NCBI GenBank assembly: GCA_963749705.1
Contig: CAVVNQ010000004.1
Location: forward strand, 96,001-160,000
Direction: 5' to 3'
DNA from: an uncultured Chloroflexia bacterium
GTDB taxonomy: Bacteria > Chloroflexota > Limnocylindria > Limnocylindrales > CSP1-4
Length of the DNA: 64,000 nucleotides
Both the position numbers and the translations under genes were made by a program. Shown here piece by piece: positions 23,694-38,449 of the stretch; the first letter of the stretch is position 1; each line of letters starts with the position of its first letter. The notes under the pieces are model-generated. The model did no database searches and had not been told where the DNA came from. It was given only the letters and a program-made list of their open reading frames with translations.

Positions 23694-24884
23694 TCAGTCC
23701 CTGAGCGCATCGCCGCCGCCCAGCGGCACATCGGTCCGACGCCACCGACGCGCGCCCCTGGCCGGGAGATAGCGCCAACCCACCAGCGCGCCCGCCACGG
23801 CGAGCAACGCGGAGATCCCGAACAGGACCTGGGGCCCGCCCTCGGCGTACAGGAGCCCGCCGACGACGTTGGCCAGGAACGCCGCCACCCCCGCCGTGGT
23901 GATCGAGATCAACGCCTGCCCCGATCCCTGGAGGCGCGGCGGCATCACCTGCTGGATGGTCATCACGCTCGCGATCCACAGCCCCGCAAACCCGACCCCC
24001 GAGATCAGCCGGGAGGCAACGATCGCGAGCGCCGACCCGAGCACCGCCCACAGCAGGAACGCCGACACGTACAGGGCCACCGACACCACGAACAGGCCCC
24101 GGATCCCGATCCGGGGCACCGCACGGCCAGCGGCGACCATGGCACCGACCTCGGCGGCGGCCGCGACCGCGGATGACAGGGCCACCTCGGGCGCCCCGCC
24201 GCCCAGCTCGACGATCCGCAGCGACAGGAACGTGAAGCCGGCGAACACGCCGACGTACGCCAGGCCGACCGCGACCAGGACCCGGGGCATGGCCGGGTCG
24301 ACCGCGAATGCCTCGCGGATCGCGCCGCCGCGACGGTGCGCGGTGAGCTGCGCGCGCCCCAGGTCCGGGATCCGGCGCGCGACCAGCGCGATCGCGACCG
24401 CCAACACGAGGAACATGACCCCGGCCGGCCAGTACCCGAGCGCCCCGTACAGCACCCCGAATGCGACCGCCGCGACCGCGAACGCCGCGCTCGACCCACT
24501 GCGGACCCGCCCGTACTCGCGCCCGGGGTCACGCATCGCGTTGACCGCCAGCGCATCGGACAGGGGTCCCGCGGCGCCGTAGCAGGCGGCATACGCGACA
24601 TAGGCGGCCCCCACCGCAAGCGGCGGCAACGGAAGCAGGAACAGCACCAGCAGCCCCGCCGCCAGCAGGATCGACACGCTGAGCGCCCGGGCGCGCCCGA
24701 GCACGACATCGCCCAGGTGGCCCCACACGGACACCGACACGATGAACGCGACCGAGGTGAGCGCCGTCACCAGGCCGATCACGGCCGGGCTGAACCCACG
24801 GCCCGCGAGGATCACGGAGGCGAACGGACCCAGCACGGCAATCTCGGCGCCGTTGAGCACGAACAGCAGGCGAATGCGGACCAT
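23694..24884 (-). CDS. MFS transporter (nucleoside:H+ symporter / YwbF-like)
   Basis: About 12 hydrophobic segments; WGHLGDV, YGRVRS.GS, PRLQGSGQAL motifs. Confidence 0.82.
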   Translation of the reverse strand: MVRIRLLFVLNGAEIAVLGPFASVILAGRGFSPAVIGLVTALTSVAFIVSVSVWGHLGDVVLGRARALSVSILLAAGLLVLFLLPLPPLAVGAAYVAYAACYGAAGPLSDALAVNAMRDPGREYGRVRSGSSAAFAVAAVAFGVLYGALGYWPAGVMFLVLAVAIALVARRIPDLGRAQLTAHRRGGAIREAFAVDPAMPRVLVAVGLAYVGVFAGFTFLSLRIVELGGGAPEVALSSAVAAAAEVGAMVAAGRAVPRIGIRGLFVVSVALYVSAFLLWAVLGSALAIVASRLISGVGFAGLWIASVMTIQQVMPPRLQGSGQALISITTAGVAAFLANVVGGLLYAEGGPQVLFGISALLAVAGALVGWRYLPARGARRWRRTDVPLGGGDALRD

Positions 24885-24938
24885 CGTGGACCCGTCCAGG
24901 GCGCCGAAGCGCGATGCCGCCGGCGCGGCGGCGTGGCG

Positions 24939-25943
24939 TCAGCCGAAGCGCTCGCGAAGCCTCGGCAGGATGACCTTCCCGTAGCGCGCGATGGCCGTCT
25001 CCTGGTCGTTGCCCGGGAAGTGGAACACGAGGTGGTTGAGCCCGTAGGAGAGGTACGGGGCGATCTGGTCCACGTGCTCGTCGGGATCGTCGGACACGAG
25101 CCAGCGGGTGTGCGCGTAGGGCTCGGCGTGCTTGGCGAGGATCTCCATCTGGCGCGGGTCGTGGACGCCGACCTTCATCTCGCCCGGCAGGGCCAGCGCC
25201 GCCCAGACCTTGGTGTCCTCCATCGCCCGCGAACGATCGGGGTCGAAGCTGACCTTCATCTCGATCATCCGGTCCATCGCCGCGGCGTCCCGCCCGACCT
25301 TCGCGGCCCCCTCGGCGAGCGCCGGCAGGAGGGTGTCGGTGTACAGCTCGGCACCCTTGCCGCTGGTGCAGATGAACCCGTCGGCGATCCGCCCGGCGAG
25401 CCTCGCCGCGGCCGGACCCGAGGCCGCGATGTAGATCGGGACGGGCGTGTCCGGGCGATCATAGACCGTCGCCTCGTGGGTGCGGAAGAACTCGCCGCTG
25501 AAGTCGACGAACTCCTCGCGCCATAGCCGCCCGATGAGGGTCACCGCCTCCTTGAGCCGCGCGAACCGCTCCTTCTGTTCGGGCCAGTCCACGCCTACGG
25601 GGACCTCGTTCATCGACTCCCCGGTGCCGACGCCCAGGATCACCCGTCCGGGGGCCAGGCAGGCCAGGGTCGCGAACGCCTGGGCAACGATCGCGGGGTT
25701 GTATCGGAATGAAGGGGTGAGCACGCTCGTACCCAGCGTCACCCGCTGGGTCGCCTGGGTCGCGGCACCCAGCCAGACGAGCGCGTTGGGGGCATGACCG
25801 TCGGTGTGGCGCCAGGGCTGGAAGTGGTCGCTCGTCCATACGGAGTCGAACCCCGCGGCCTCGGCCGCCACCGCGAGGTCCAGCAGGCGGCGGGGCGGAA
25901 ACTGCTCTGCGGACGCCTTGTAGCCGAGGGTCAGTCGGGGCAT
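24939..25943 (-). CDS. fgd: F420-dependent glucose(sugar)-6-phosphate dehydrogenase (luciferase-like fold)
   Basis: LGYKASAEQF, SDHFQPWRH, LGTSVLTP, GVGTGESMNE, FICTSGKG closely match mycobacterial FGD1. Confidence 0.9.
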   Translation of the reverse strand: MPRLTLGYKASAEQFPPRRLLDLAVAAEAAGFDSVWTSDHFQPWRHTDGHAPNALVWLGAATQATQRVTLGTSVLTPSFRYNPAIVAQAFATLACLAPGRVILGVGTGESMNEVPVGVDWPEQKERFARLKEAVTLIGRLWREEFVDFSGEFFRTHEATVYDRPDTPVPIYIAASGPAAARLAGRIADGFICTSGKGAELYTDTLLPALAEGAAKVGRDAAAMDRMIEMKVSFDPDRSRAMEDTKVWAALALPGEMKVGVHDPRQMEILAKHAEPYAHTRWLVSDDPDEHVDQIAPYLSYGLNHLVFHFPGNDQETAIARYGKVILPRLRERFG

Positions 25944-25971
25944 TCGGGACCTCTGTGCGTTCTGGGCATGC

Positions 25972-26868
25972 TCAGCGGGCGATGGCGAGCACGCCGGCTC
26001 CCGCCAGGACCAGCATAGCCCCGACGATCCGGCGGGACACCTCGCCGGGGTCCCGGGCCTCGCGCAGCCGGACGACGCCCCAGGTGGTGGCGAGGAGCAC
26101 GGCGGACTCGCGGAGCGGGGCCACCACGGCGAGCGGTGCGCGCTGCAGGGCCGCCAGGACCAGCCCGTACGCGGCGACCGTGAGCACGCCCGCCGACACC
26201 GCGCGCCGGCGGGCTGCCCCGACCCCCATCGTGGCGACTGGAAGATCGCCGCGCCGGGCCCGGACGATGGCGATCAGGCCAAGCCCGAGCGCGCCCGTCG
26301 GCCACAGGATCCCCGCGTACAGCCACGGTGGCACGAGCTGGACGCCCACGCGATCGATGGCCGAGTACGAGGCGATCATCGCGCCCGTGAGCAGCGCGAA
26401 CCCGGCCGCGGATCGATCGTCGCGCGCCTCTGCCGCGCGCAGCAGGCGCCACGGCCGTTGGACGATGAGCAGGCTCGCGACCAGGAGCGCGACGCCCAGG
26501 ATCGCCCCGGGCGCCAGTCGCTCGCCCAGGACGCCGACACCCAGGATGATCGCGAGCAGCGGTGCGCTGCCGCGCGCGAGCGGGTACACGAGCGACAGGT
26601 CGCCGCGACGGTAGGCCGCGGCGAGGAACAGGAAGTACACCACCTCCACCCCGCCCGAGGCCACGCCAAGCAGCCACGCGTCGTTGGGGATCGCGGGCCG
26701 TCCCAGCGTCAGCCACCCCACCGCCACCGCGGGCACGAGCACCACGGACACCGCGACGAGCCCGACCGTCGCGGTCCACAGCGGGTCGTCCGCGGTCTTG
26801 AGCAGCACGTTCCACGCGGCGTGGAGGACCGCCGCCAGCGCGATGAAGGCGAGGGCGAGCGGATCCAC
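25972..26868 (-). CDS. EamA/DMT family transporter
   Basis: LHAAWNVLLK, AYRRGDLSLVYPLARG, APLRES motifs. Confidence 0.9.
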   Translation of the reverse strand: MDPLALAFIALAAVLHAAWNVLLKTADDPLWTATVGLVAVSVVLVPAVAVGWLTLGRPAIPNDAWLLGVASGGVEVVYFLFLAAAYRRGDLSLVYPLARGSAPLLAIILGVGVLGERLAPGAILGVALLVASLLIVQRPWRLLRAAEARDDRSAAGFALLTGAMIASYSAIDRVGVQLVPPWLYAGILWPTGALGLGLIAIVRARRGDLPVATMGVGAARRRAVSAGVLTVAAYGLVLAALQRAPLAVVAPLRESAVLLATTWGVVRLREARDPGEVSRRIVGAMLVLAGAGVLAIAR

Positions 26869-26966
26869 GCGCGAAGTCTAGGGTCCGGACCCTGGCCGGC
26901 GGACCGCTCGTTGCGGGTCGGCGAAGCACTCGCCGGATGCGTGTTCGCCGCCGCCGGTTCGCCCGA

Positions 26967-27932
26967 CTACCCGGATCCGGCCGCCGGCCAGCCGCCGAGC
27001 TCGGCGAGCGTCGGCGGATCGGCGCCGGCTCGCTCGCAGGCCATCGCGGACGCGCGGACCGCGAACCGCGCCGCGTCGAGCGCCGACCGGGCGTCATGGA
27101 GGCCTGCTCGTCCCACCCCGGCGCGGACGATGGCGGCGAGGAAGGCACCGCCGAACGTATCGCCCGCACCCACCGTGTCGACGACCCGCACCCTCGGGAC
27201 CGGCACCACGTGGTTCGCACCCCCCGCGTGCACCGTGACCGAGCGACCGCCGTCGGTGAGCAGGACGACCCGGTCGCCATCCCCGGCCAGCCGGGCGACC
27301 GCCTCGGGCAGCGGGACCCCCGGCTGCAGGTAGGCGAGGTCGTCGGCGCTGACCTTGACCACGTCGGTCCGCTCCATCACGCGCGCCACCCGCGCCCGGT
27401 AGCCATCCGGATCGGCGGTGATCGATGGCCGGCAGTTGGGATCGACCATGAGGATCACGTCATCGGGAAGCGTCGCCGCCAGCGATTCCAGCGTGGTGGC
27501 CATCGGCTCGAGCACGAACCCCAGCGTGCCCAGGTGCACGGCGCGCGTCGCTGCCGGCAGCCCGGCTTGGAGCGGCCCGATGTCCACCGCCGGCGCGGAC
27601 GTCCCATCCACGTAGAACCGGTACGCCGCGACGCCGTGCTCGTCGAGCTCGGCCAGGGCGAGCGTCGTCGGCAGGTCAGTTCGCTGGACGTGGTCGAGCG
27701 ACACGCCGTCGCGGACGAGCCCGGTCTCCAGCATCCGCCCGAAGCGATCCGACGACAGCCCGCCGATCCAGGCCACCGGAACCCCCAGGCGGGCGACGGC
27801 CCGGGCAGTGTTGTACGGTCCGCCACCGGGTGCCGGCACCAGCCGTCCGTCGGCGAGCACGATCAGGTCGATCAGCGCCTCGCCGGCGACCACGATCAGC
27901 GCCGGTTCGCCGGACGTTTCCTGGCTGGTCAT
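26967..27932 (-). CDS. PfkB-family carbohydrate kinase
   Basis: GEALID, PGGGPYN, DPNCR, VKVSADD, DTVGAGDTF. Confidence 0.93.
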   Translation of the reverse strand: MTSQETSGEPALIVVAGEALIDLIVLADGRLVPAPGGGPYNTARAVARLGVPVAWIGGLSSDRFGRMLETGLVRDGVSLDHVQRTDLPTTLALAELDEHGVAAYRFYVDGTSAPAVDIGPLQAGLPAATRAVHLGTLGFVLEPMATTLESLAATLPDDVILMVDPNCRPSITADPDGYRARVARVMERTDVVKVSADDLAYLQPGVPLPEAVARLAGDGDRVVLLTDGGRSVTVHAGGANHVVPVPRVRVVDTVGAGDTFGGAFLAAIVRAGVGRAGLHDARSALDAARFAVRASAMACERAGADPPTLAELGGWPAAGSG

Positions 27933-28025
27933 GGCTGGAGGCTACTGCCTCGCGGCGGGCCGCGCCAACCCGCCGGAGCGCAGGCCCGTCGACGCCACGA
28001 CCGCCCGCGGCAGCGGATCGGCAGG

Positions 28026-28054
28026 TTGACACGGCTCGTGGCCGGACCTAGCAT
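28026..28054 (+). promoter_or_regulatory. Sigma70 promoter of the microcompartment operon
   Basis: TTGACA (28026-28031), 17-nt spacer, TAGCAT (28049-28054). Confidence 0.75.
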
Positions 28055-28060
28055 GCGACC

Positions 28061-28094
28061 TGCACATATGAGCATTGATGTACGCACATGAGCA
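28061..28094. promoter_or_regulatory. Tandem operator candidate for the SorC-family repressor
   Basis: TGCACATATGAGCA (28061-28074, near-palindrome) and a degenerate copy TACGCACATGAGCA (28081-28094), 20-bp period, over the predicted transcription start. Confidence 0.6.
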
Positions 28095-28107
28095 ACGCGG
28101 GGCGCGC

Positions 28108-29103
28108 GTGACGACCGTCGCTGCCCCGGTTCGCGGCGCCTCGGATCCGCGCCTGCTCGTTCGCGTCGCGCGGATGTACTACGGCATGGCGCTGACCCAG
28201 GAGGAGATCGGCGCGAGGCTCGGTCTGAGCCGGTTCAAGGTCGGCAGGCTGCTGGACCGGGCGGTCCGCGAGTCGATCGTGCGGATCGAGATCGTCCACC
28301 CCGCCGCCCGGCTGGTCGAGATCGAGGAGCAGCTGGTCGCCCGCTTCGGGCTGCGCGCGGCGGTCGTCGCCGACGCCGGGTCCGGTCCGGTCACCGCGGA
28401 GGGGTCGGTCGAGGCCGCGACCGCCGTCGCGCGGGAGGCGGTGGCCAGGGCTGCCGCCCGGTATCTCGCCGAGATCCGACCGACGGGCGCGATCGGCGTG
28501 TCGTGGGGCCGGACGATGCTCGAGCTGGCCCGTGCCCTGGAGCCGGGCTGGACGACCGCGACCGAGATCGTCCAGCTCAACGGGGCGACGTCACGCTCGG
28601 CGACGCCGACGCGTGCCGGCGAGATCGTGGACCGGTTCGGGGTCACCAGCGGCGGATCGATCCGGCTCATGCCCGCGCCGGCGATCGTGGGGTCGGCCGC
28701 GCTGCGGACCGCGCTCGAGGCGGACCCGTCCGTGGGCGACACGCTGCAGGCGGCCCGGCGGGCGCCGTTCGCCGTGTTCAGCCTCGGCATCCCGGAGCCC
28801 GGCAGCGTCCTCGTGGAGTCCGGGTTCGTGGCGCCCGCGGACCGGAAGCTCCTGCGCCGGGCGGGCGCGGTCGGCGACATCCTGGGCCGGTTCCTCGCAC
28901 CCGACGGCCGGATCGCGCTGCCGGACCTCGACCAGCGCACGGTCGGCCTGCCGCTCGACGAGCTCGCGGCCAAGGACCACACCATCGGGCTCGCCGCCGG
29001 ACCCGGTCGCGGTCCCATCGCGCTCGCGGCCATCCGCGCGGGCTGCGTGAACACCCTGATCACCGACGAAGGAACGGCTGACTGGCTGGTTGCGCATGGC
29101 TGA
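28108..29103 (+). CDS. SorC/LsrR-family sugar-phosphate-binding transcriptional regulator
   Basis: VARMYYGMALTQEEIGARLGLSRFKVGRLL HTH, IGVSWGRT, GAVGDILGRF, LITDE. Confidence 0.92.
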   Translation: MTTVAAPVRGASDPRLLVRVARMYYGMALTQEEIGARLGLSRFKVGRLLDRAVRESIVRIEIVHPAARLVEIEEQLVARFGLRAAVVADAGSGPVTAEGSVEAATAVAREAVARAAARYLAEIRPTGAIGVSWGRTMLELARALEPGWTTATEIVQLNGATSRSATPTRAGEIVDRFGVTSGGSIRLMPAPAIVGSAALRTALEADPSVGDTLQAARRAPFAVFSLGIPEPGSVLVESGFVAPADRKLLRRAGAVGDILGRFLAPDGRIALPDLDQRTVGLPLDELAAKDHTIGLAAGPGRGPIALAAIRAGCVNTLITDEGTADWLVAHG

Positions 29104-29719
29104 GCCGCGGATCCGCCCCACCGAGCAGGACGTGCGGGACGTGGTCCGGCGCATCGTCGACGCCGTGTACGTACCCTCGGCCACGGTCGCCCCGACGACG
29201 GCGGCCGCACACATCGATGCCGGGGCCGCCGACGGGCAGCGTCCGTCCTCCATCGCCATCGGCGCCGACCATGGCGGCTTCCGGCTCAAGGAGCAGCTCC
29301 GGCAGGCGCTGGCCGAGCGCGGCCACGCGGTCCACGACTGCGGGACCGGCAGCGAGGACGCGGTCGACTACCCGGATCTCGCGCTGGCCGTCGCGAAGCT
29401 GGTCGCCGACGGCACGTGCAGCGTCGGGATCGTCGTGGACGGCGCCGGCATCGGCTCGTGCATGGCCGCCAACAAGGTGCCCGGCGTACGCGCCGCCATG
29501 TGCTACGACCTCTCAACGGCACGCAACAGCCGCGAGCACAATCACGCCAACGTGCTCACGCTCGGGGCGCGGCTCATCGGCGCCGGGCTTGCGCTCGACA
29601 TCGTGACCGAGTGGCTGGCCACGCCCTGGGGGCCGGGTCGCCACGCGGCCCGCGTCGACAAGATCACCGCCATCGAGCGGCACTACCTGAAGGACGGCAC
29701 CGGGGTTGGGACGCGATGA
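29096..29719 (+). CDS. rpiB: RpiB-family sugar-phosphate isomerase with N-terminal encapsulation peptide
   Basis: [41 protein letters not shown]-terminal amphipathic helix [15 protein letters not shown] plus Ala/Pro/Thr linker. Confidence 0.9.
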
Positions 29720-30582
29720 CGACGATCGATGACCGGGACCTGCTGATCGAGACGATCACGCGGGAGGTGCTGGCGACGTTCTCGCTGGGCGGCGAGACGT
29801 GCATCAACTGCGGCGGGTCGTGCGCCGCGCATTGCGCGGACAAGGTCCGCGACGTCGTGACCAACGGCGCCAGCCGGATCGCGTACCACGGCCGGGGCAG
29901 CGACGTGCCGCTGGACCTCGCCGGCTACATCGACCACACCCTGCTCCGCCCCGACGCCACCGCGGCCGACATCGACCGCCTGTGCGCGGAGGCCGTCGAG
30001 CACCACTTCGCGGCGGTGTGCATCAACCCCACCTGGATCCGACGCGCGGCGGACAACGTGCGCGGGACCGATGTCGCGGTCGCCTCGGTGATCGGCTTCC
30101 CGTTCGGCGCCGCGACGACCGAGGTCAAGGCCATGGAGGCGCGCCGCGCCATCCGCGACGGGGCGCGCGAGATCGACATGGTGATCAACATCGGGGCGCT
30201 CAAGAGCGGCATGCTGGACGCGGTCCGCGAGGACATCGATCGCGTCTCCGACGCATGCCACGAGTCCGGGGCCCTCAACAAGGTGATCATCGAGACCGCG
30301 CTCCTCACCGACGAGGAGAAGGTCATCGCGTGTCACCTCGCGAAGGAGGCCAAGGCTGACTTCGTCAAGACCTCCACCGGCTACGCCTCGGGTGGCGCGA
30401 CCGTGTTCGACGTCGCCCTCATGCGCGAGGCGGTGGGCTCACGGATGGGCGTCAAGGCCTCGGGCGGGATCCGTACCGCCGAGGATGTCCAGGACATGAT
30501 CGCCGCCGGCGCCACCCGGATCGGGGCCTCCGCCGGCGTCAAGATCGTCACAGGAGAGAGGGGAGCGCGTGAGCAATATTGA
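29716..30582 (+). CDS. deoC: Deoxyribose-phosphate aldolase with encapsulation peptide and Cys-rich extension
   Basis: [49 protein letters not shown]-terminus [14 protein letters not shown] then [12 protein letters not shown]. Confidence 0.93.
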
Positions 30583-31198
30583 CCTTCGCGCCTATGTCTT
30601 CCTCGACAGCCTCCAGGCGCAGTACGCCGCGTTCCTGGGGACCGTCGCGCAGGGGTTCCTGCCGCTGGCCGGCGATGCGTCGCTGTCGATCGAGGTGTCG
30701 CCGGGCATCGAGATCAACCGGCTGACGGACATCGCCCTCAAGTCCACCTCGGTCAAGCCGGGGATGCAGATCATCGAGCGCTACTACGGCATGCTCGAGG
30801 TCCACTCCCCCTCGCAGGCGGAGGTCCGGGCGGCCGGGGCGGCCATCCTGCGCGAGATCGGGCTCGAGGAGACGGACCGGATCAAGCCCCGGATCCTGTC
30901 CAGCCAGATCATCCGCCGCATCGACGATCACCAGGCGCAGCTGATCAACCGCACCCGCCACGGCCAGATGCTGATCCCGGGCGAGACGCTGTACGTGCTC
31001 GAGCTCGAGCCCGCGGCCTACGCGGCCCTCGCCGCCAACGAGGCGGAGAAGGCGGCCCACATCAACATCCTCGAGGTCCGCTCGTTCGGCTCGATGGGCC
31101 GGATCTACCTGGGCGGCGAGGAACGGGACATCGACGTCGGCTGGCGCGCGGCGCTGGCCTCGATCGAGGGCCTCGACGGCCGCGAGGCCAAGAGCTGA
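30569..31198 (+). CDS. BMC shell trimer (BMC-T, CcmP/CsoS1D-like permuted tandem domain)
   Basis: [16 protein letters not shown]...GFLP..GD....[19 protein letters not shown] motifs characteristic of CcmP/CsoS1D. Confidence 0.88.
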
Positions 31199-31244
31199 CA
31201 CCCACCACCAATACCGGCAATCACAACGGCGAAGGAGAGGATCG

Positions 31245-31553
31245 ATGGCTGAAGCACTGGGCATGATCGAGGCGCGCGGGTTCGCCGCGATGGTCGAGGC
31301 GGCCGACGCGATGGTCAAGGCGGCCAAGGTCGAGCTGGTGAGCTACGAGAAGACCGGCGGCGGCTACGTGACCGCGGTCGTGCGCGGTGACGTCGCGGCG
31401 GTCAAGGCGGCCGTCGAGGCGGGCGTCCGGGCCGCCACCAAGGTCGGCGAGGTGGTCACCAGCCACGTCATCGCGCGGCCGCACAGCAACGTGGACCTCG
31501 TCCTCCCGCTCGGTCGTGCCGAGCAGGCCAAGGGCGAGAAGGGCGACGACTGA
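31245..31553 (+). CDS. BMC shell hexamer (BMC-H, EutM/PduA-like)
   Basis: ALGMIEARG...[12 protein letters not shown]...[21 protein letters not shown]...HVIARPH; AAGGAG RBS. Confidence 0.96.
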
Positions 31554-31611
31554 CGTTCGCACCAGGGGCCGCGGTCGCAGCGCGATCGCGGCCCGGACCC
31601 GGGAGGAAGCC

Positions 31612-31899
31612 ATGCTCCTTGGACGGGTGGCCGGAACGGTCGTCTCCAGCCGCAAGGAACCGCTGATCGAGGGCTGGAAGCTGCTCCTCGTGCGCCAGCT
31701 CGACACCGACAACCACGAGGGCGGCGGCTACGTCGTCGCCGCCGACGCCGTGGGCGCCGGGGTGGGCGAGGTCGTCCTGTACGCGACGGGCAGCTCCGCG
31801 CGCCAGACCGAGATGACCAGGGATCGACCGTGCGACGCCGTGATCATGGCGATCGTCGACACCTGGGAGGTCGGCGGTCGTGAGATCTATCGGAAGTAG
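31612..31899 (+). CDS. BMC vertex pentamer 1 (EutN/CcmL family)
   Basis: [15 protein letters not shown]...KLLLV...[20 protein letters not shown]...DAVIMAIVD. Confidence 0.95.
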
Positions 31900-31902
31900 C
31901 CG

Positions 31903-33363
31903 ATGAGCGACCTCAGCGAGCGCGACATCCAGGACATCATCGAGCGCGTCAGGCGGCGGATCGACGCCGCCTCCGAGGGCCGGGTGGGCACGGCGCTGCG
32001 CGCCGAGGCCGAGCTGGCCGCCGCGCCCACCGAGCTGGGCGACGGGATCCACGCCACGATCGACGACGCGGTCGCGGCGGCCACCGGCGCGTTCCGCGAG
32101 TTCCAGTCCATGGGCCTCGACGGGCGGCGGGTGATCATCGAGGCGATCCGGCAGTCGATGCTCGACCACGCGGAGCAGCTCGCGCGGATGGCCCATCAGG
32201 AGACGCACCTCGGGCGGTACGAGGACAAGGTCGTCAAGAACCGCCTGGTGACGATGAAGGCGGCGGGCCCCGAGGACCTCGAGGTCGAGGCGGTGTCCGG
32301 CAGCCTGGGCATGATGGTCACGGAGTGGGCGCCGTTCGGTGTCGTGGCCGCGATCACGCCGGTCACCAACCCGACCTCCACGGTGATCAACAACACGATC
32401 AGCATCGTGTCCGCCGGCAACGCGGTCGTGTTCAACGCCCACCCCAACGCGAAACGAAGCTCCGCGGAGACGATCCGCCTGATCAACCGCGCGATCGTCG
32501 GCGCCGGCGGCCCGTCGGACCTGGTGACCGCGATCGTGGAGCCGACGATCGACAGCGCCCGGGCCCTGATGAGCCACCCCGGCGTCCGGGTGCTGCTGGT
32601 CACCGGTGGTCCGGGCGTCGTCCGCGAGGCGCTGCGGACCGACAAGCGGGCGATCACGGCCGGCCCCGGCAACCCGCCCGCGGTGGTCGACCAGACGGCG
32701 GACGTCGAGCGCGCGGGCCGCGACATCGTGCGCGGCGCGTCGTTCGACAACAACATCATCTGCACCGACGAGAAGGTCGTGCTGGTCGTGGACTCGGTCG
32801 CGGACCGGCTGATCCGCGCGATGACCCACAACGGCGCCTACCTGCTCAAGGAGCACGAGCTCCGACGCCTGGAGCGGGTGATCTTCCGGGAGCTCGGCGA
32901 GCCGGGCAAGCCCGGCGTCATCAACCCCGCCTGGATCGGCCGCGACGCCGCGAAGATCCTGGCCGAGATCGGGGTCAGCGTGGAGCCCGAGCCGCGGCTG
33001 CTGATCGCGGAGGTGCCGCGGGATCACAGCCTGGTGTGGACCGAGCAGATGATGCCGGTGCTCCCCGTGGTGCGGGTCGGGACCGTCGACCAGGCGATCG
33101 ACCTCGCCGTCCGAGCCGAGCATGGGTTCCGGCACACCGCGTCGATCCACTCGACCAACGTGGACACGATCACGCGCATGGCCCGGGCCATGAACTGCAG
33201 CATCTTCGTGGCCAACGGACCCAACTTCGCGGGGCTGGGCGAGGGCGGCGAGGGGTTCTCGTCGTTCTCCATCGCCTCCCCCACCGGCGACGGCCTGACC
33301 CGGCCGCGGACCTTCTCGCGCGAGCGGCGGATCACCGTCGTCGGCGCGCTCCGGATCGTCTGA
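31903..33363 (+). CDS. CoA-acylating aldehyde dehydrogenase (EutE/PduP-like) with encapsulation peptide
   Basis: PFGVVAAITPVTNP, VTGGPGVV, AGPGNPP, SFDNNIICTDEK (catalytic Cys), EQMMP, IASPTGDG. N-terminal helix SERDIQDIIERVRRRI. Confidence 0.94.
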   Translation: MSDLSERDIQDIIERVRRRIDAASEGRVGTALRAEAELAAAPTELGDGIHATIDDAVAAATGAFREFQSMGLDGRRVIIEAIRQSMLDHAEQLARMAHQETHLGRYEDKVVKNRLVTMKAAGPEDLEVEAVSGSLGMMVTEWAPFGVVAAITPVTNPTSTVINNTISIVSAGNAVVFNAHPNAKRSSAETIRLINRAIVGAGGPSDLVTAIVEPTIDSARALMSHPGVRVLLVTGGPGVVREALRTDKRAITAGPGNPPAVVDQTADVERAGRDIVRGASFDNNIICTDEKVVLVVDSVADRLIRAMTHNGAYLLKEHELRRLERVIFRELGEPGKPGVINPAWIGRDAAKILAEIGVSVEPEPRLLIAEVPRDHSLVWTEQMMPVLPVVRVGTVDQAIDLAVRAEHGFRHTASIHSTNVDTITRMARAMNCSIFVANGPNFAGLGEGGEGFSSFSIASPTGDGLTRPRTFSRERRITVVGALRIV

Positions 33364-33365
33364 CC

Positions 33366-33956
33366 ATGCAGCCGGCCATCGCCCTGCTCGAGCTCGACTC
33401 GATCGCCGTCGGGATCGAGACCGGCGATGCGATGGCCAAGCGCTCCCCCATCGACGTCATCTACGCCGGGACCGTCCACCCCGGCAAGTACCTGGTGCTC
33501 GTGGGCGGGGCGGTCGCGGACGTCGAGGAGGCGCTCGAGGCCGGGCGCGCCGTCGGCGGACCATCGATCCTCGACGTCGTCCTGCTCCCGGACGTCCATC
33601 CCCAGGTGGTGGCCGCGATCCGCGGCACCCGGCGAGCATCTTCGGGCGAGGCACTGGGGATCATCGAGACCCAGACGGTGGCCGCGATCATCGATGCGGC
33701 CGACGCCGGGGTGAAGGGCGCGCGGGTCCGGCTGCTCGAGCTTCGCCTCGCCGACGGCATCGGCGGCAAGGCGTACCTGCTGTTCGGCGGCGGCGTAGCC
33801 GATGTCGAGGCGGCGGTCGAGCTTGGCCGCGACCGGATCGGCGCCGCCGCGCGCTCGATCTCCCGCGTGATCCCCCAGCTCCATGGCGAGATGCGCGTCA
33901 ACCTCGAGGCCGACTCCCGGTTCCGCGACCGGATTGCCGCTCGAGAGGACGCCTGA
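33366..33956 (+). CDS. BMC shell trimer (PduT-like tandem domain)
   Basis: AIALLELDSIAVG...DAMAK...GTVHPGKYLVLVGG...ALGIIET..VAA...ADAGVKGA...LADGIGGKAY. Confidence 0.9.
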   Translation: MQPAIALLELDSIAVGIETGDAMAKRSPIDVIYAGTVHPGKYLVLVGGAVADVEEALEAGRAVGGPSILDVVLLPDVHPQVVAAIRGTRRASSGEALGIIETQTVAAIIDAADAGVKGARVRLLELRLADGIGGKAYLLFGGGVADVEAAVELGRDRIGAAARSISRVIPQLHGEMRVNLEADSRFRDRIAAREDA

Positions 33957-33957
33957 G

Positions 33958-34338
33958 ATGCAGCTCGCGCGGGTCATCGGCACCGTCGTGGCGACGATCA
34001 AGTCGCCCGGGCTCGAGGGCGTCCCGCTGCTGATCGTGCAGCCGCTCGACCGGCGGCAGCAGGCCGAGGGGACGCCGGTCGTCGCCGCGGACGCGGTCCG
34101 GATGGCCGGACCCGGCGAGCTCGTGTACATCGTCGCCGCCCGCGAGGCGTCGCTCGCCCTGGACGAGCCGTTCGTACCGGTCGACCATGCGATCGTGGGC
34201 ATCGTGGACGCGGTCGCCACCGATGGGGAGCGCGACCCACGCGGAACCGGCGAACCACGCGGAGCGGGGGCGCCATCCGCCGGCCATCCCGCGACGCGCC
34301 GGAAGCGGGCGCCGTCACGCGGAAGGGGCACGCCATGA
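33958..34338 (+). CDS. BMC vertex pentamer 2 with basic C-terminal tail
   Basis: MQLARVIGTVVATIK...VAADAV.AGPGELV...REA...PVDHAIVGIVD followed by a ~38-aa Gly/Pro/Arg tail. Confidence 0.92.
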   Translation: MQLARVIGTVVATIKSPGLEGVPLLIVQPLDRRQQAEGTPVVAADAVRMAGPGELVYIVAAREASLALDEPFVPVDHAIVGIVDAVATDGERDPRGTGEPRGAGAPSAGHPATRRKRAPSRGRGTP

Positions 34339-34682
34339 AGCTCGCGCGGGTGGTCGCCACGGTCACCTCGACGATCAACGTGCCGCTGTTCGACGGCCGC
34401 AAGCTGCTGCTGTGCGACCTGCTCGATCCTGAGGGCGCCGACGCGGGCGGGTACCTGATCGCCGTCGACACCGTGGGTGCCGGCCCGGGCGAGACGGTGC
34501 TGCTCATGGACGAAGGGAACTCCGCGCGCCAGATCCTGGACGCGCGGGACGCGCCGGTCCGCACGCTGGTGGTGGGGATCGTCGACGCGGTGGAGCTCGC
34601 GAAGCCGGTGGGCGATGCGTCGACGGTGGCGCGGCGCACGCCCAACCGCGCTCGACCCGCACGCCGCCGCGCGGCCGAATGA
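34335..34682 (+). CDS. BMC vertex pentamer 3 with Arg-rich tail
   Basis: MKLARVVATVTST...KLLL...IAVDTVGAGPGETVL..EGNSAR...VVGIVD. Confidence 0.93.
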   Translation: MKLARVVATVTSTINVPLFDGRKLLLCDLLDPEGADAGGYLIAVDTVGAGPGETVLLMDEGNSARQILDARDAPVRTLVVGIVDAVELAKPVGDASTVARRTPNRARPARRRAAE

Positions 34683-35119
34683 CCCCGGACGACGGGGTCC
34701 CCCGGCGCGTCCGCCTTGCCGCCTACGCGTGGATCGAGGACGACGGGCGGGTGGTCCTGGTCCGTGTCGCCGCCGGGTCGCCGGGAGCCGGCGAGTGGAC
34801 GCTGCCCGGGGGCGGGCTCCGGTTCGGGGAGGACCCGGTCGACGGCGTCGTCCGCGAGGTGGCCGAGGAGACCGGCCTGACGGTCAGGGTCGGCAGCCTC
34901 GTCGCGGTCCGATCGACCGTGCTCGAGCCCGGGGAGACGCCGAGCGGCGACCGAATCCACGCGGTCGGGCTCGTGTACCGGGCGAGCGCCGACGACGGCG
35001 AGCTTCGCCACGAGGCTGACGGATCCACCGACATGGCGGCGTGGATCTCGTTCGACGAGCTCGATGCGCTCGCGTCGGCGCGGCTGCTGCGCTGGGCGCG
35101 GAGCGTGGTTGGTCGATGA
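34679..35119 (+). CDS. NUDIX hydrolase
   Basis: Nudix box GGGLRFGEDPVDGVVREVAEETGL; ATGA overlap with BMC-P 3. Confidence 0.9.
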   Translation: MTPDDGVPRRVRLAAYAWIEDDGRVVLVRVAAGSPGAGEWTLPGGGLRFGEDPVDGVVREVAEETGLTVRVGSLVAVRSTVLEPGETPSGDRIHAVGLVYRASADDGELRHEADGSTDMAAWISFDELDALASARLLRWARSVVGR

Positions 35120-35157
35120 CCCGAACGACGCCCCCCTCCGCGCGCTACCCTGCCGCC

Positions 35158-37011
35158 ATGTCGAACCTTCCGTTGTGGGAGCGCCGTTTCCGCGCGCCCG
35201 TCCTGTCCTTTCCGTCATGGTCAGCGGAGGCGCCGGACAGGATCGTGGTCGCCTCCACCGAGAGCGGGAGCTACCAGCTCCACACCTGGGACCGGGCCAC
35301 CGGCCGTCGCCGGCAGGTCACCCGGGACCCCGTCGGGGTCACCGAGGGCCGGCCGACCCGCGATGGCACGGGGGTGATCTGGTTCCGCGACGACACGGGA
35401 GATGAGACAGGTACCTTCGTGATCGCCCCGTTCGACGAGGACGTCGCGCCCGAGCCGTTGATCGAAGGGTTGCCCAGGGGCTGGTCCGAGGGCCTCGCGA
35501 TCGGCCGGACGCGCTCGGTCGCCGTGGTCAGCTCGATCGACGGGTTCTCGGTGTGGACCGCGGCCAACGGCTCGGCTGCGCGCCGGATCCACGCCCACCG
35601 GCAGCCGGTCCGGCTGGCCGGAGGCTGGGGCGTGATCGCGTCGGTGGACCGCAACGCCCTGTCGGCCGACGACGCGGTCGTCGTGCTCGAGATCATGGAG
35701 GACGGCGACGTCCTGCACCCGTCGCTGCGGGCGATCGACGCCGACACCGGCGAGACCGTCCGCGACCTGCGGGATCCGGGGCTCGAGCTCGCGGGGTTCG
35801 GCTTCTCGCCCGTGCCCGGCGACCGCCGCATCGCGATCACGCACGAGCGGACCGGCGATCGGCGGCCGGCCCTGTGGGACACGGACAGCGGTGAGGTCAT
35901 CGACCTCGACATCGACCTCGAGGGGCCGGTGGAGCCGGTCGGCTGGTGGCCGGATGGCTCGGCGCTCCTCCTGCAGCAGCTCGTCGAGGGCCGCCACCGC
36001 CTCCATCGCTACGACCTGGCCGGCGGACGCGTCGAGGCCCTCGACACGGTGCTGGGCTCGATCACCGCCGCGGCCGTCCGGCCCGACGGCTCCGTGTGGT
36101 ATCGCGTCCATGCCGGCGAGCATCCGGCGATGCTCCTGGCGGTGGGCTCGCCGACGCCGCTCCTGGTCGCCGATGGAGCCCCGGCGCCGGCGGGCCGGCC
36201 GTTCGAATCCTGGTGGTTCGCCAATCCCGACGGGCAGCAAGTGCACGGCTTCCTCGTCCACCCCGAGGGGCCCGGGCCGCACCCCGTGATGATGCGCGTG
36301 CACGGTGGCCCGCAATCCACCGACATGGACCGGTGGGCGCCCGACATCCAGGCACACGTGGACGCCGGCTTCCTGGTCGCGATGGTCAACTACCGTGGAT
36401 CCGAGGGGTTCGGCCGGCAATGGCGCGATGCGCTCACCGGCAACGTCGGCTTCCTCGAGCTCGAGGACGTCCTTGCCGGGCTCGACGACCTCGTCGCCCG
36501 GGGCCTCGCGGACCCGTCTCGAGCGGTGCTCGCCGGCTGGTCATGGGGCGGGTACATCACGCTGCTGGGCATGGGCCGCCACCCTGGGCGCTGGGTCGCC
36601 GGCATCGGCGGCGTGCCCGTGGCCGACTACATCGCGGCCTACGAGGACGAGGCTCCCACCCTGCAGGCGCTCGACCGTGCGCTGTTCGGCGGGTCGCCCG
36701 AGACGGTGCCGGACCTGTTCGTGGAGCGCAACCCGATCACGTACGCCGACGATGTCCGCGCACCGCTGCTGATCCTCGCCGGCGAGAACGACAGCCGCTG
36801 CCCGATCCGCCAGGTGTGGAACTACGTCGAGCGGCTGCGCGCGCGTGGCGTCGAGCCGCAGGTGTACACGTACGCGACGGGACATGCGTCGTACGACATC
36901 GAGGAACGGGTCCGCCAGACGCGGATCGTGCTCGAGTTCCTGGCCAGGACCGTGCCGGGCGTGCGGCGGCTCGACGGGCTGGACGCTCCGCTGGAGGCGG
37001 CGCCGGCGTAG
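35158..37011 (+). CDS. S9 (prolyl oligopeptidase family) peptidase
   Basis: VHGGP, NYRGSEGFG, GWSWGG nucleophile, DSRCP, GH. Alternative start at 35116. Confidence 0.92.
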   Translation: MSNLPLWERRFRAPVLSFPSWSAEAPDRIVVASTESGSYQLHTWDRATGRRRQVTRDPVGVTEGRPTRDGTGVIWFRDDTGDETGTFVIAPFDEDVAPEPLIEGLPRGWSEGLAIGRTRSVAVVSSIDGFSVWTAANGSAARRIHAHRQPVRLAGGWGVIASVDRNALSADDAVVVLEIMEDGDVLHPSLRAIDADTGETVRDLRDPGLELAGFGFSPVPGDRRIAITHERTGDRRPALWDTDSGEVIDLDIDLEGPVEPVGWWPDGSALLLQQLVEGRHRLHRYDLAGGRVEALDTVLGSITAAAVRPDGSVWYRVHAGEHPAMLLAVGSPTPLLVADGAPAPAGRPFESWWFANPDGQQVHGFLVHPEGPGPHPVMMRVHGGPQSTDMDRWAPDIQAHVDAGFLVAMVNYRGSEGFGRQWRDALTGNVGFLELEDVLAGLDDLVARGLADPSRAVLAGWSWGGYITLLGMGRHPGRWVAGIGGVPVADYIAAYEDEAPTLQALDRALFGGSPETVPDLFVERNPITYADDVRAPLLILAGENDSRCPIRQVWNYVERLRARGVEPQVYTYATGHASYDIEERVRQTRIVLEFLARTVPGVRRLDGLDAPLEAAPA

Positions 37012-37211
37012 CGGGCCGCCGTATGCCCACCACGTTTAGCGAGCGCCAGAACCCGGCCGATCGGGCACGCGAGCACCGGGAACGACCCCACGACCCGTTC
37101 GCGACACGCTCACGGCGCTCGATTCGGCGGCACAGGAGTCCTTCGGGCGCCGCATTTCCGGCCCGGTAAGCGTGGTACGCATGCGAGGGGCAGCCACCAA
37201 GCCGCCGCGCC

Positions 37212-38315
37212 TCAGTCGAACCGGAACCGGCCCTCGCGGCCGAGGCAGGGCTGTCCGCGCCCGTACCTGATCTCGCCCGCGGTGACGTCGGCGACACACC
37301 AGAACGCGGTGGTCGAGGTCTCCGCACCGTCGTCGTGGCGACAGATCGATGGCGTCGACGCGTGATCGGACAGGGCCGCGAGCAACGTGTCCGCCGTGAT
37401 TGAACCCGCAGCCGGCCCTTCGCGGTCCGGGCCATCCAGCAGCTCCAGGGCGCGCCCCAGCCGAACCGCGGAGCGGCGCGCGTACGCCGGATCACCCTCA
37501 TAGCGAAGCATCGGCTCGCACGCGTAGTGGTTCGTGTGTGCGAACGTCCCGCCGCGGGTCAACCCGCCCAGCTCGGCATCGGTGGCCGATCCCTCGACGT
37601 TGACGACGCGCCCGTCGCGGTGCGCGAGCACGGTGTTGTACGAGGACGCACGGTCGGGCCGCAGCGTCATCCGCACGGCCTCGTCGAGCGAGGTCGCGGT
37701 GAGCTGCTCGCGGACCATCAGCAGGCGCGGGACCCCGACCCGCTCATCGTTGGGTGACAGCTCGTTGCCGGTCAGCGACAGGCCGGCCGCGTTCCAGCCG
37801 ACGCTGATCCAGGGGCCGATCCCGAGCGAGAACACGACCGGCTCCCCGGGCACCCGCCACTCGATGGCGATGATCGAATCCTCCGAGGCCGGGGCCAGGT
37901 CGTTGTTGTGCGCGATCAACACGTGGCCGTCGGCGGTCGCCGGGGGCCCCGCAACCAGGTCCGTGCAGCGGCCGTCCACGACCGCACCCGCGGTCGCCTG
38001 CGACGGACGGATCGACCAGATCTCCTCGATCGAGGCGGCGAACAGGGCGATCGGATCGACTCGCGCGCCGTCCGCAGCGCCGTCGATCTCGTCCACCAGC
38101 CATGGCGTCGCGCGGAGCGTCGCATCGCGGTACGCCGTCGCGAGCGCGAGCTGCTGGTCACGGGTCCGGCCGGCCGGTAGCTCGTCGTCGAAGGCGACCG
38201 CCTGCCGGAGGACCTCGGCGGTCGCCTCGCCGACCTGGCGGCCGACATCGCGATGCGATCCGCGCACGCTAAGGAACGGGATGCCCGGGCTCATGAACGG
38301 GATGCCCGGGCTCAT
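37212..38315 (-). CDS. C45 family (AAT / Ntn-hydrolase) peptidase/acyltransferase
   Basis: GR|CTDL self-cleavage Cys, AHNNDL, GWNAAGLSLTGNEL, AHTNHY, SICRH. Confidence 0.85.
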   Translation of the reverse strand: MSPGIPFMSPGIPFLSVRGSHRDVGRQVGEATAEVLRQAVAFDDELPAGRTRDQQLALATAYRDATLRATPWLVDEIDGAADGARVDPIALFAASIEEIWSIRPSQATAGAVVDGRCTDLVAGPPATADGHVLIAHNNDLAPASEDSIIAIEWRVPGEPVVFSLGIGPWISVGWNAAGLSLTGNELSPNDERVGVPRLLMVREQLTATSLDEAVRMTLRPDRASSYNTVLAHRDGRVVNVEGSATDAELGGLTRGGTFAHTNHYACEPMLRYEGDPAYARRSAVRLGRALELLDGPDREGPAAGSITADTLLAALSDHASTPSICRHDDGAETSTTAFWCVADVTAGEIRYGRGQPCLGREGRFRFD

Positions 38316-38330
38316 GAACGGGTGCCCGGC
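38274..38330. repeat. 21-bp tandem repeat over the C45 start (two full copies + one degenerate)
   Basis: GAACGGGATGCCCGGGCTCAT x2 then GAACGGGTGCCCGGC; encodes MSPGIPF-MSPGIPF. Confidence 0.9.
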
Positions 38331-38449
38331 TTGGCGCCGGTCGGCTGGATGGTCATTGGATCGCGACTGTACGCCGGTCGCCGGCCGGCCGCACCCGCGA
38401 ACGGGGTCGCCCGGCCGTTCTGACCCGCCGGCGCCGAGCCAGACCGCCG

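Follow-up and report, generated by a model that had tools for sequence, protein, structure and literature searches.

A probable sugar-phosphate-utilisation (SPU) metabolosome operon of SPU3 architecture in the genome of an uncultured Chloroflexia bacterium

Which organelle is encoded by a compact row of shell and enzyme genes in an uncultured Chloroflexia bacterium, on what substrate might it act, and how could its cofactors be recovered when no recycling enzyme is encoded among these genes? The row lies on a 64,000-nucleotide stretch of contig CAVVNQ010000004.1 (the window, numbered from its first letter) and comprises genes for a SorC-type regulator, an RpiB-like protein, a deoxyribose-phosphate aldolase (DERA), a CoA-acylating aldehyde dehydrogenase (AldDH) and six shell proteins of a bacterial microcompartment (BMC), followed by a NUDIX hydrolase gene. 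Few microcompartments are as widespread as the SPU organelles, of which, to our knowledge, none has been isolated so far. Our analysis led to the conclusion that the genes form a genuine cluster encoding an organelle with a protein shell—a new example of a system type already published—and probably an SPU metabolosome operon of SPU3 architecture. The locus adds no new principle; its small additions are an operator-like repeat, a BMC-Ts protein without the Fe-S cysteine, a four-cysteine motif in the DERA extension and a hint of transcription. Because none of the known recycling genes was seen in the genome, this short operon of ten genes (the regulator and the nine-gene core), which appears to be transcribed, could be a minimal test case for the passage of cofactors through a CcmP-like shell protein.

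Gene content and operon structure

Pfam and NCBIfam profiles identified eleven genes, all in the same orientation, at 28075-35119 on the forward strand of a GC-rich window (GC fraction 0.66-0.76). The genes lie where an earlier note, made from the sequence alone, had placed them. The tight coupling and single promoter claimed in that note were likewise borne out, with intergenic gaps of at most 58 nt (-14, -4, -14, 46, 58, 3, 2, 1, -4 and -4 nt, in gene order) and one sigma-70-like site, the single match in 27500-37500 against 0.3 expected. A scan of the same interval for terminator-like sites returned none. The regulator may start at 28075 or possibly at 28078 or 28108. The features of the operon are:

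28026-28054, forward strand: sigma-70-like promoter (TTGACA, 17 nt, TAGCAT), 5' of the regulator gene, found by motif scan
28062-28093, forward strand: putative SorC operator, two GCACA(N0-2)TGAGC copies, from motif count and conservation
28075-29103, forward strand: regulator of the SorC/DeoR subfamily (PF04198, 167 bits)
29090-29719, forward strand: RpiB-like protein (PF02502, 178 bits, residues 55-192)
29716-30582, forward strand: DERA (TIGR00126, 283 bits; cut-off 117)
30569-31198, forward strand: BMC-Tdp, CcmP-like (CcmP 4ht5, E 2e-86)
31245-31553, forward strand: BMC-H shell hexamer protein (PF00936, 104 bits)
31612-31899, forward strand: BMC-P pentamer protein 1 (PF03319, 99 bits)
31903-33363, forward strand: AldDH, CoA-acylating, EutE/PduP type (NF011927, 618 bits; cut-off 403)
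33366-33956, forward strand: BMC-Ts, tandem, PduT-like (PduT 3n79, E 1e-38)
33958-34338, forward strand: BMC-P pentamer protein 2 (PF03319, 88 bits, residues 1-84 of 126)
34335-34682, forward strand: BMC-P pentamer protein 3 (PF03319, 84.5 bits, residues 1-84 of 115)
34679-35119, forward strand: NUDIX hydrolase, neighbour (PF00293, 74 bits)

Gene order, relatives and the SPU3 assignment

SPU loci number more than 280 in 26 phyla and seven subtypes, and catabolism of DNA-derived deoxyribose phosphate has been proposed for them (Sutter et al. 2021, PMC8217296). The locus studied here holds the tagged DeoC-type aldolase (pfam01791), the acylating AldDH and the Asp-variant RpiB (pfam02502) by which SPU loci are recognised, together with a complete shell set of BMC-H, BMC-T (Tdp and Ts) and a BMC-P triplet. 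The SPU class and the DERA/AldDH chemistry put forward in the earlier note therefore agree with the published description (PMC8217296, PMC11585597).

To place the locus among its relatives, a DERA search was carried out, from which 80 public loci were kept of 591 confirmed relatives, and the window proteins were compared with these by tblastn. The core order RpiB-DERA-Tdp-H-P-AldDH-Ts-P-P was complete in 15 of the 80 (L007-L016, L037, L039, L057, L071 and L080) and begun in 10 more, with a contig end or one undetected gene accounting for the remainder of the row. Within the genus, the SorC-type regulator and all nine core genes were present in each of 12 loci, the regulator gene always 5' of the core. 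The closest of the 80 loci, labelled Chloroflexia, Chloroflexi or Anaerolineaceae, share 77-80% identity in DERA and 95% in BMC-Tdp. Metagenome-assembled genomes with the core order carry the labels Chloroflexi/Chloroflexia, Acidimicrobiia, Thermoanaerobaculia, Ardenticatenaceae, Promineifilaceae, Calditrichia and Neomarinimicrobiota, which match the taxa given for SPU3 in Dataset S1 of PMC11585597, i.e., Actinobacteria, high-GC Chloroflexi, Acidobacteria, Calditrichaeota, Marinimicrobia, Promineofilum and Ardenticatenia. The locus is filed as SPU3 because both its architecture and the taxa of its relatives match that dataset.

Published SPU3 loci have N-terminal encapsulation peptides (EPs) on DERA and ribose-5-phosphate isomerase (RPI) as well as on AldDH, and neither phosphotransacylase (PTAC) nor alcohol dehydrogenase (AlcDH; Dwyer et al. 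2024, PMC11585597). The present locus shares the three N-terminal EPs on DERA, the RPI-like protein and AldDH, a BMC-Tdp of the CcmP/CsoS1D kind alongside a BMC-Ts, one BMC-H, the BMC-P triplet, the lack of PTAC and AlcDH, an Asp at the Cys66 position of RpiB and the range of host taxa (PMC8217296, PMC11585597). It differs from SPU3, as described in the same sources, in that RpiB and DERA are separate genes (they are fused in 20 SPU3 loci), in its SorC/DeoR-type regulator with a conserved repeat, in the NUDIX and S9 peptidase genes at its 3' end, and in the absence of a PduS homologue from the locus, its flanks and the genome (3.6 Mb in 22 contigs, 88.18% complete).

A second arrangement, RpiB-DERA-P-AldDH-H-Tdp-P-P, was found in about 20 other loci, one of which (L079, Chloroflexi bacterium RBG_16_51_16) is given as SPU6 in Dataset S1 of PMC11585597. 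The locus does not belong there: its gene order differs, its AldDH carries the EP at the N-terminus, and the AldDH of SPU6-type loci—EUT3-like and with a reported C-terminal EP (PMC11585597)—is only 30-36% identical. Compared with the SPU6 locus of Chloroflexi bacterium GWB2_54_36, which has been studied experimentally (PMC11585597), the cargo trio, the helix motifs of RPI and DERA, the Asp in RPI, the lack of PTAC and PduS, BMC-Tdp and the three BMC-P genes are alike, whereas that locus is described without a BMC-Ts and with a GntR/UTRA-type regulator.

BMC-Tdp was present in 15 of 24 other genomes of the genus. In the sister family of the same order, none of 16 genomes (G025-G040; 1.0-1.4 Mb) had it. 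The organelle goes with the lineage of larger genomes.

In three related loci, labelled Ardenticatenaceae (L039, 9471-10595), Chloroflexi, CFX4 (L057, 12728-13846) and Promineifilaceae (L064, 13557-14684), AldDH and BMC-Ts are separated by two additional genes. One encodes a response-regulator receiver fused to a ParA/MinD-like ATPase, and the other a protein of 175-179 residues without a Pfam match. This ATPase may serve to position the organelle.

Cargo enzymes and their N-terminal extensions

The three N-terminal helices quoted in the earlier note are present and are kept in related loci. In the RpiB-like protein, the helix (hydrophobic moment 0.82 over a 14-mer) ranks first in amphipathicity among 196 14-mers and is followed by an Ala/Pro-rich linker, and the helix of AldDH, RDIQDIIERVRRRI, ranks first among 473 (hydrophobic moment 0.89). 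Frames read upstream in related loci gave a conserved tag motif for each enzyme—xLVExITREVL for DERA, [DE]x[IV]RxhVxRhV for the RpiB-like protein and [DE]xEIQxIIERV for AldDH.

The DERA extension comprises about 65 residues, in which the helix is followed by Cys29, Cys32, Cys36 and Cys40; DERA structures in the PDB align from residue 66, and the non-BMC DERAs of L072, L076, L077, L082 and L085 start at the catalytic domain without an extension. The motifs IDMV, KVIIE and VKTSTG, with their Asp and two Lys, are invariant in our alignment A1, and an AF2 model built on a 63-sequence alignment placed the barrel core at pLDDT >90. In the RpiB-like protein, which aligns with RpiB structures only from about residue 51-55, VDGAG is aligned to ICGTG of 3he8/3ph3; an Asp thus stands in place of the catalytic Cys (E. 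coli Cys66), and the His of REHN (His99) is kept. An Asp for Cys66 is described for all SPU RPIs, and the RPI of SPU6 had negligible ribose-5-phosphate isomerase activity, while SPU6 DERA was active on deoxyribose-5-phosphate and a DERA-RPI complex was demonstrated (PMC11585597). The AldDH matches the BMC aldehyde dehydrogenase 5jfl (E 5e-128) and retains the catalytic Cys of NNxxC.

The cysteines of the DERA extension form a C-x2-C-x3-C-x3-C motif between tag helix and barrel (window 29800-29835, residues 29-40). We examined 78 homologue frames, read upstream from stop to stop so that start codons count as unverified, for cysteines in the 50 residues before the barrel: at least four were found in 48, three in 4, two in 12 and at most one in 9, and 5 frames were without an extension. 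In SPU6-type and Thermoanaerobaculia homologues, the cysteines are lost in some cases. PMC11585597 makes no mention in its main text of such a motif in the DERA extension, and a search of open-access papers and bioRxiv for cysteines in this extension returned nothing relevant. The AF2 model gave the Cys region a pLDDT of 50-58, a low confidence that carries no information on metal binding.

In a further twelve loci (L037, L039, L043, L044, L051, L053, L057, L058, L064, L071, L073 and L074), no short EP helix precedes the RpiB-like domain; a conserved stretch with (I/V)TP(L/S)AR...G(I/V) lies upstream of the domain instead.

Shell proteins

The BMC-Tdp protein scores only 19.6 bits against Pfam BMC, below the threshold. 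It aligns at full length (residues 3-206 of 209) with cyanobacterial CcmP 4ht5 (E 2e-86) and equally well with 5lsr (E 2e-86), and further matches are BMC-T of H. ochraceum (5v76, E 4e-71) and CsoS1D (3f56, E 8e-51). The label 'CcmP-like BMC-T' given in the earlier note is right, because the alignment to CcmP is full-length despite the sub-threshold Pfam score. By this likeness, BMC-Tdp is predicted to form a stacked, gated trimer; in L006, L007, L008 and L016 the protein is 95% identical.

The PduT-like BMC-Ts has HPGK in place of the Fe-S motif CP(G/S)K and is thus without the pore cysteine that distinguishes the PduT-type Fe-S BMC-T(SE) (PMC11626177). At the pore position, 21 related loci have His (9), Gln (11) or Thr (1), and none has Cys.

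BMC-P2 (126 aa) and BMC-P3 (115 aa) end in basic Arg/Pro-rich C-terminal tails of about 40 and about 30 residues past the EutN domain, respectively (window 34210-34338 and 34590-34682). Their homologue frames in relatives are mostly shorter, at 87-122 aa.

Regulator, promoter and operator-like repeat

Among solved structures, the regulator is closest to B. subtilis DeoR (8r7y, E 1e-33, full length), a SorC repressor of the deoxyribose-phosphate aldolase operon dra-nupC-pdp that binds deoxyribose-5-phosphate covalently (PMC11229326; PDB 8r7y, 4oqp). All six related SorC-bearing loci compared have TTGACA and a TA-rich -10 element at the corresponding position. Directly 3' of the -10 box, GCACA(N0-2)TGAGC occurs in two copies 22 nt apart—the only two matches in the 64 kb window, against 0.45 expected, with 8 of 100 shuffles reaching two. 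Two copies, direct or inverted, lie at the same position in L006, L007, L010, L011, L016 and L040, which are all the related loci with a SorC identity above 55%.

We propose that the repeat pair is a putative SorC operator, in keeping with the two half-operators on which SorC repressors sit as tetramers (PMC11229326). The operon would then be autoregulated, with the SorC/DeoR-like repressor probably bound at the two repeats 3' of the promoter and released by a sugar phosphate. Control of a DERA operon and a two-half-site operator are features in common with B. subtilis DeoR, from which the locus differs in the sequence of the repeats and in their placement, 3' of the -10 box here and upstream in the published DeoR case (PMC11229326). 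Neither 'SorC' nor 'DeoR' occurs in the main text of PMC11585597, and a search of open-access papers and bioRxiv for a link between SorC and SPU microcompartments gave nothing relevant.

Between the operator-like repeats lies a seven-codon ATG...TGA mini-frame (window 28068-28091), with the same 21-nt frame in L006, L007 and L016. It is probably a product of the fixed repeat spacing; alternatively, it may encode a leader peptide.

A hint of transcription

Sediment metatranscriptome X1 contained 52% of the sampled operon words, and its pieces with 0-1 differences cover 28761-29303, 30294-30516, 31677-32067 and 33190-33589. Summed depth was 1.5-39 in bins 28608-34947, 0-0.35 in bins 24804-28607 and 0 in bins 36216-38751. 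In a soil run listed as possibly DNA, with no library type on record, the flanks were covered too. Uncovered parts in this run comparison prove nothing, and the small word shares of runs X3-X20 are no evidence of habitat. Taken together, X1 offers a hint that the operon is transcribed.

Substrate and the case against the assignment

On the reading we prefer, DERA would cleave deoxyribose-5-phosphate into glyceraldehyde-3-phosphate plus acetaldehyde, and the acylating AldDH would trap the acetaldehyde as acetyl-CoA with reduction of NAD+. The RpiB-like protein, with its Asp for Cys, would by analogy with the SPU6 homologue most likely be a packaging partner of DERA rather than a ribose-5-phosphate isomerase. 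All three cargo proteins would be recruited through their N-terminal amphipathic helices into a shell predicted to combine a single BMC-H with three BMC-P, a gated BMC-Tdp resembling CcmP, and a PduT-like BMC-Ts that has no Fe-S site. Gene identities, catalytic residues, the conserved tags, synteny and the lack of recycling genes in the genome searches are observations, from which substrate, encapsulation, operator role and cofactor route are inferred.

Several observations weigh against this reading. PduS is published as frequent in all subtypes except SPU6 (PMC11585597), and none occurs in the present clade; the SPU3 label therefore rests on architecture and taxa, the authors' classifier having no part in it. 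The amphipathicity of the DERA helix is only moderate (rank 28 of 275 14-mers), and residues 4-25, which form it, reach a pLDDT of only 64-68 in the AF2 model. The X1 evidence consists of contigs of a run found with this very stretch, and for that reason counts as a hint of transcription only. A search of the 88%-complete genome found neither deoB (TIGR01696) nor the PYNP_C domain, other mutase families having been left unsearched. Lastly, an Asn in the regulator aligns with the Lys of QLKGG (K141) in B. subtilis DeoR, which we take to be the residue that binds deoxyribose-5-phosphate covalently. The best NCBIfam model of the regulator, Bacillus DeoR NF053881, was matched at 210.9 bits, short of its cut-off of 420. 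Because of this score and the Asn for Lys, the likeness to DeoR was dropped as an independent pointer to deoxyribose-5-phosphate.

The most serious alternative, which we nevertheless regard as unlikely, is that the true substrate is another sugar phosphate or aldehyde source and that the RpiB-like protein carries out a novel isomerisation feeding or following the aldolase. It stays in play because the genome shows no deoB and no pyrimidine-nucleoside phosphorylase C-terminal domain. The Asn at the K141 position points the same way, as do a divergent neighbouring kinase that is fructokinase-like rather than ribokinase-like and the retention of the RpiB-like gene in nearly all related loci, though the isomerase activity of its SPU6 homologue is negligible (PMC11585597). 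Set against these points are the DERA itself, which exceeds the cut-off of the deoC equivalog (117) with 283 bits and keeps its Asp/Lys/Lys motifs, the activity of the SPU6 homologue on deoxyribose-5-phosphate (PMC11585597), and the neighbourhoods of two relatives: in L007, genes for thymidine and purine nucleoside phosphorylases lie 1.5 kb downstream, and in L014 a cytosine/purine permease gene follows directly. Deoxyribose-5-phosphate thus remains the substrate we favour.

Cofactor recycling

The locus contains no gene for PTAC, AlcDH, Pta or AckA, a lack that the earlier note had called unusual. That description does not hold, because the tags, the missing PTAC and AlcDH, and a route for acetyl-CoA through BMC-Tdp are already in print: SPU3 is described without PTAC and AlcDH, and SPU loci without PTAC typically encode BMC-Tdp, through which acetyl-CoA has been proposed to leave (PMC11585597). 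Both the oddity and its explanation are thus already published.

The other suggestion of that note, reliance on distal genes, found no support in the genome. PduL gave 0 matches in the 88.18%-complete assembly, and the best RnfC_N score, 21.8 bits, lay below the cut-off, so that no PduS/MNdh was seen. The single PTA_PTB match was considered as Pta and rejected, since it is PlsX (L001, G000:C15). One Fe-ADH exceeded its cut-off; it lies about 70 kb away on the same contig and has no EP-like helix. BMC domains occur at this locus only, and neither an EP-tagged PduL nor an EP-tagged alcohol dehydrogenase, the finding by which the note would have had the locus count as a conventional metabolosome, turned up elsewhere in the genome. 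Consequently, the core of a canonical PDU/EUT metabolosome—PTAC plus alcohol dehydrogenase, or MNdh plus an Fe-S BMC-T—was not found in the 88%-complete genome. PduS, PTAC and Fe-ADH were likewise absent from the 80 open reading frames flanking the 10 closest loci (within about 5 kb), and among nine further annotated loci PduS appeared only in the Myxococcales locus L021, beside a second BMC-Ts.

The only acetate kinase gene of the genome directly follows a phosphoketolase gene with XFP domains (L002, G000:C3:312121-316035). As AckA adjoins phosphoketolase and the sole PTA_PTB match is PlsX, acetyl phosphate in the assembled 88% of the genome would come from phosphoketolase rather than acetyl-CoA.

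Since no PTAC, PduS/MNdh, Fe-S BMC-T or tagged alcohol dehydrogenase was seen in either the locus or the genome, the most likely course is passage of CoA/acetyl-CoA and NAD+/NADH through the shell, for which the BMC-Tdp pore is the candidate. BMC-Ts proteins without a paired MNdh are described as lacking the pore cysteine, and for metabolosome types with neither system the regeneration of NAD+ "has yet to be determined" (Sutter et al. 2024, PMC11626177). The list of types without AlcDH and MNdh/BMC-T(SE) in that paper names ARO, EUT3, MIC2/3, PVM-like, RMM/AAUM and SPU6. The present locus resembles this group in having an AldDH without an NAD+-regenerating module and a Cys-less BMC-Ts, and differs from it in subtype, as the list names SPU6 and not SPU3. 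The SPU3-architecture clade would extend the list; this is the main small addition of this work.

Two other accounts of the cofactors have to be weighed. The organelle could be a conventional metabolosome with its recycling enzymes—PduL/Pta, an alcohol dehydrogenase bearing a tag, or PduS paired with an Fe-S BMC-T—encoded at other sites of the genome. In favour of this, genome completeness is only 88%, an Fe-ADH lies about 70 kb off on the same contig, an acetate kinase exists, and satellite loci are known for SPU3 and SPU6 (PMC8217296). We hold this account to be improbable, given that PduL is absent, the PTA_PTB match is PlsX, RnfC_N stays below its cut-off, BMC-domain genes are confined to the locus, the Fe-ADH has no EP-like helix, AckA adjoins phosphoketolase, itself a source of acetyl phosphate, and the 10 closest loci lack these genes within about 5 kb as well. 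Equally slim are the chances that cofactors are regenerated or handed over by new means built into the conserved cargo, with no known recycling module in the genome; for example, the Cys4 knuckle of DERA and the Asp-variant RpiB-like partner could together provide a site for a metal or for redox chemistry, or serve for docking at the CcmP-like pore, and would then not be mere packaging tags. Exchange of the cofactors across the shell therefore remains our preferred explanation.

The NUDIX gene and other neighbours

Three neighbouring features complete the gene map, the first of which overlaps the end of the operon:

34679-35119, forward strand: the NUDIX gene listed above
35116-37011, forward strand: peptidase of the S9 (prolyl-oligopeptidase) family, neighbour (PF00326, 131 bits)
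26967-27932, reverse strand: PfkB-family sugar kinase, divergent neighbour (PF00294, 127 bits)

The earlier note had counted the NUDIX gene as part of the system, a view that its distribution does not sustain: of 12 same-genus loci, 3 have the gene after BMC-P3, and of the 10 closest named loci with a downstream flank, none does. We read it as a lineage-specific neighbour. A role as a functional accessory of the organelle, e.g., in the release of sugar phosphate from a nucleotide derivative or the clearing of damaged cofactors, is very improbable, as its 4-nt start/stop overlap with the last shell gene, its retention after BMC-P3 in the three closest same-genus loci and a 51%-identical homologue 2.2 kb upstream of the regulator on the opposite strand in L007 are outweighed by its absence after BMC-P3 in 9 of 12 same-genus and 10 of 10 closest named loci (by tblastn, L007 has the only homologue in the 80 named loci), by its faster divergence (59-88% identity, against 93-99% for DERA and BMC-Tdp, in the same three loci), by the lack of an N-terminal, EP-like helix and of a specific NCBIfam match at cut-off, and by the identical coupling of the next gene, the S9 peptidase, whose ATG overlaps the NUDIX stop in the same way. 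The S9 peptidase gene lies downstream in 5 of 12 same-genus loci, directly after BMC-P3 in two of them.

On the other side of the promoter, a divergent row at 23694-27932 (reverse strand) encodes four proteins: the PfkB kinase, a transporter of the EamA type, an F420-dependent glucose-6-phosphate dehydrogenase (TIGR03554, 442 bits; cut-off 420) and an MFS transporter that weakly matches a nucleoside symporter. The best NCBIfam model for the kinase is fructokinase, at 127 bits, its cut-off of 450 not being reached. These four genes were considered as a supply route for the organelle and rejected: they have no homologues in the 80 named loci (tblastn, E 1e-5), and the kinase is fructokinase-like and sporadic in the genus, where it adjoins the operon in 3 of 12 loci (L092, L094 and L095), has a homologue 4.4 kb off in L093 and only a 29%-identical match in L097. 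All four stand beside the operon only in L092, the closest same-genus locus. An EamA gene beside L009, recognised by Pfam, is unrelated to that of the window.

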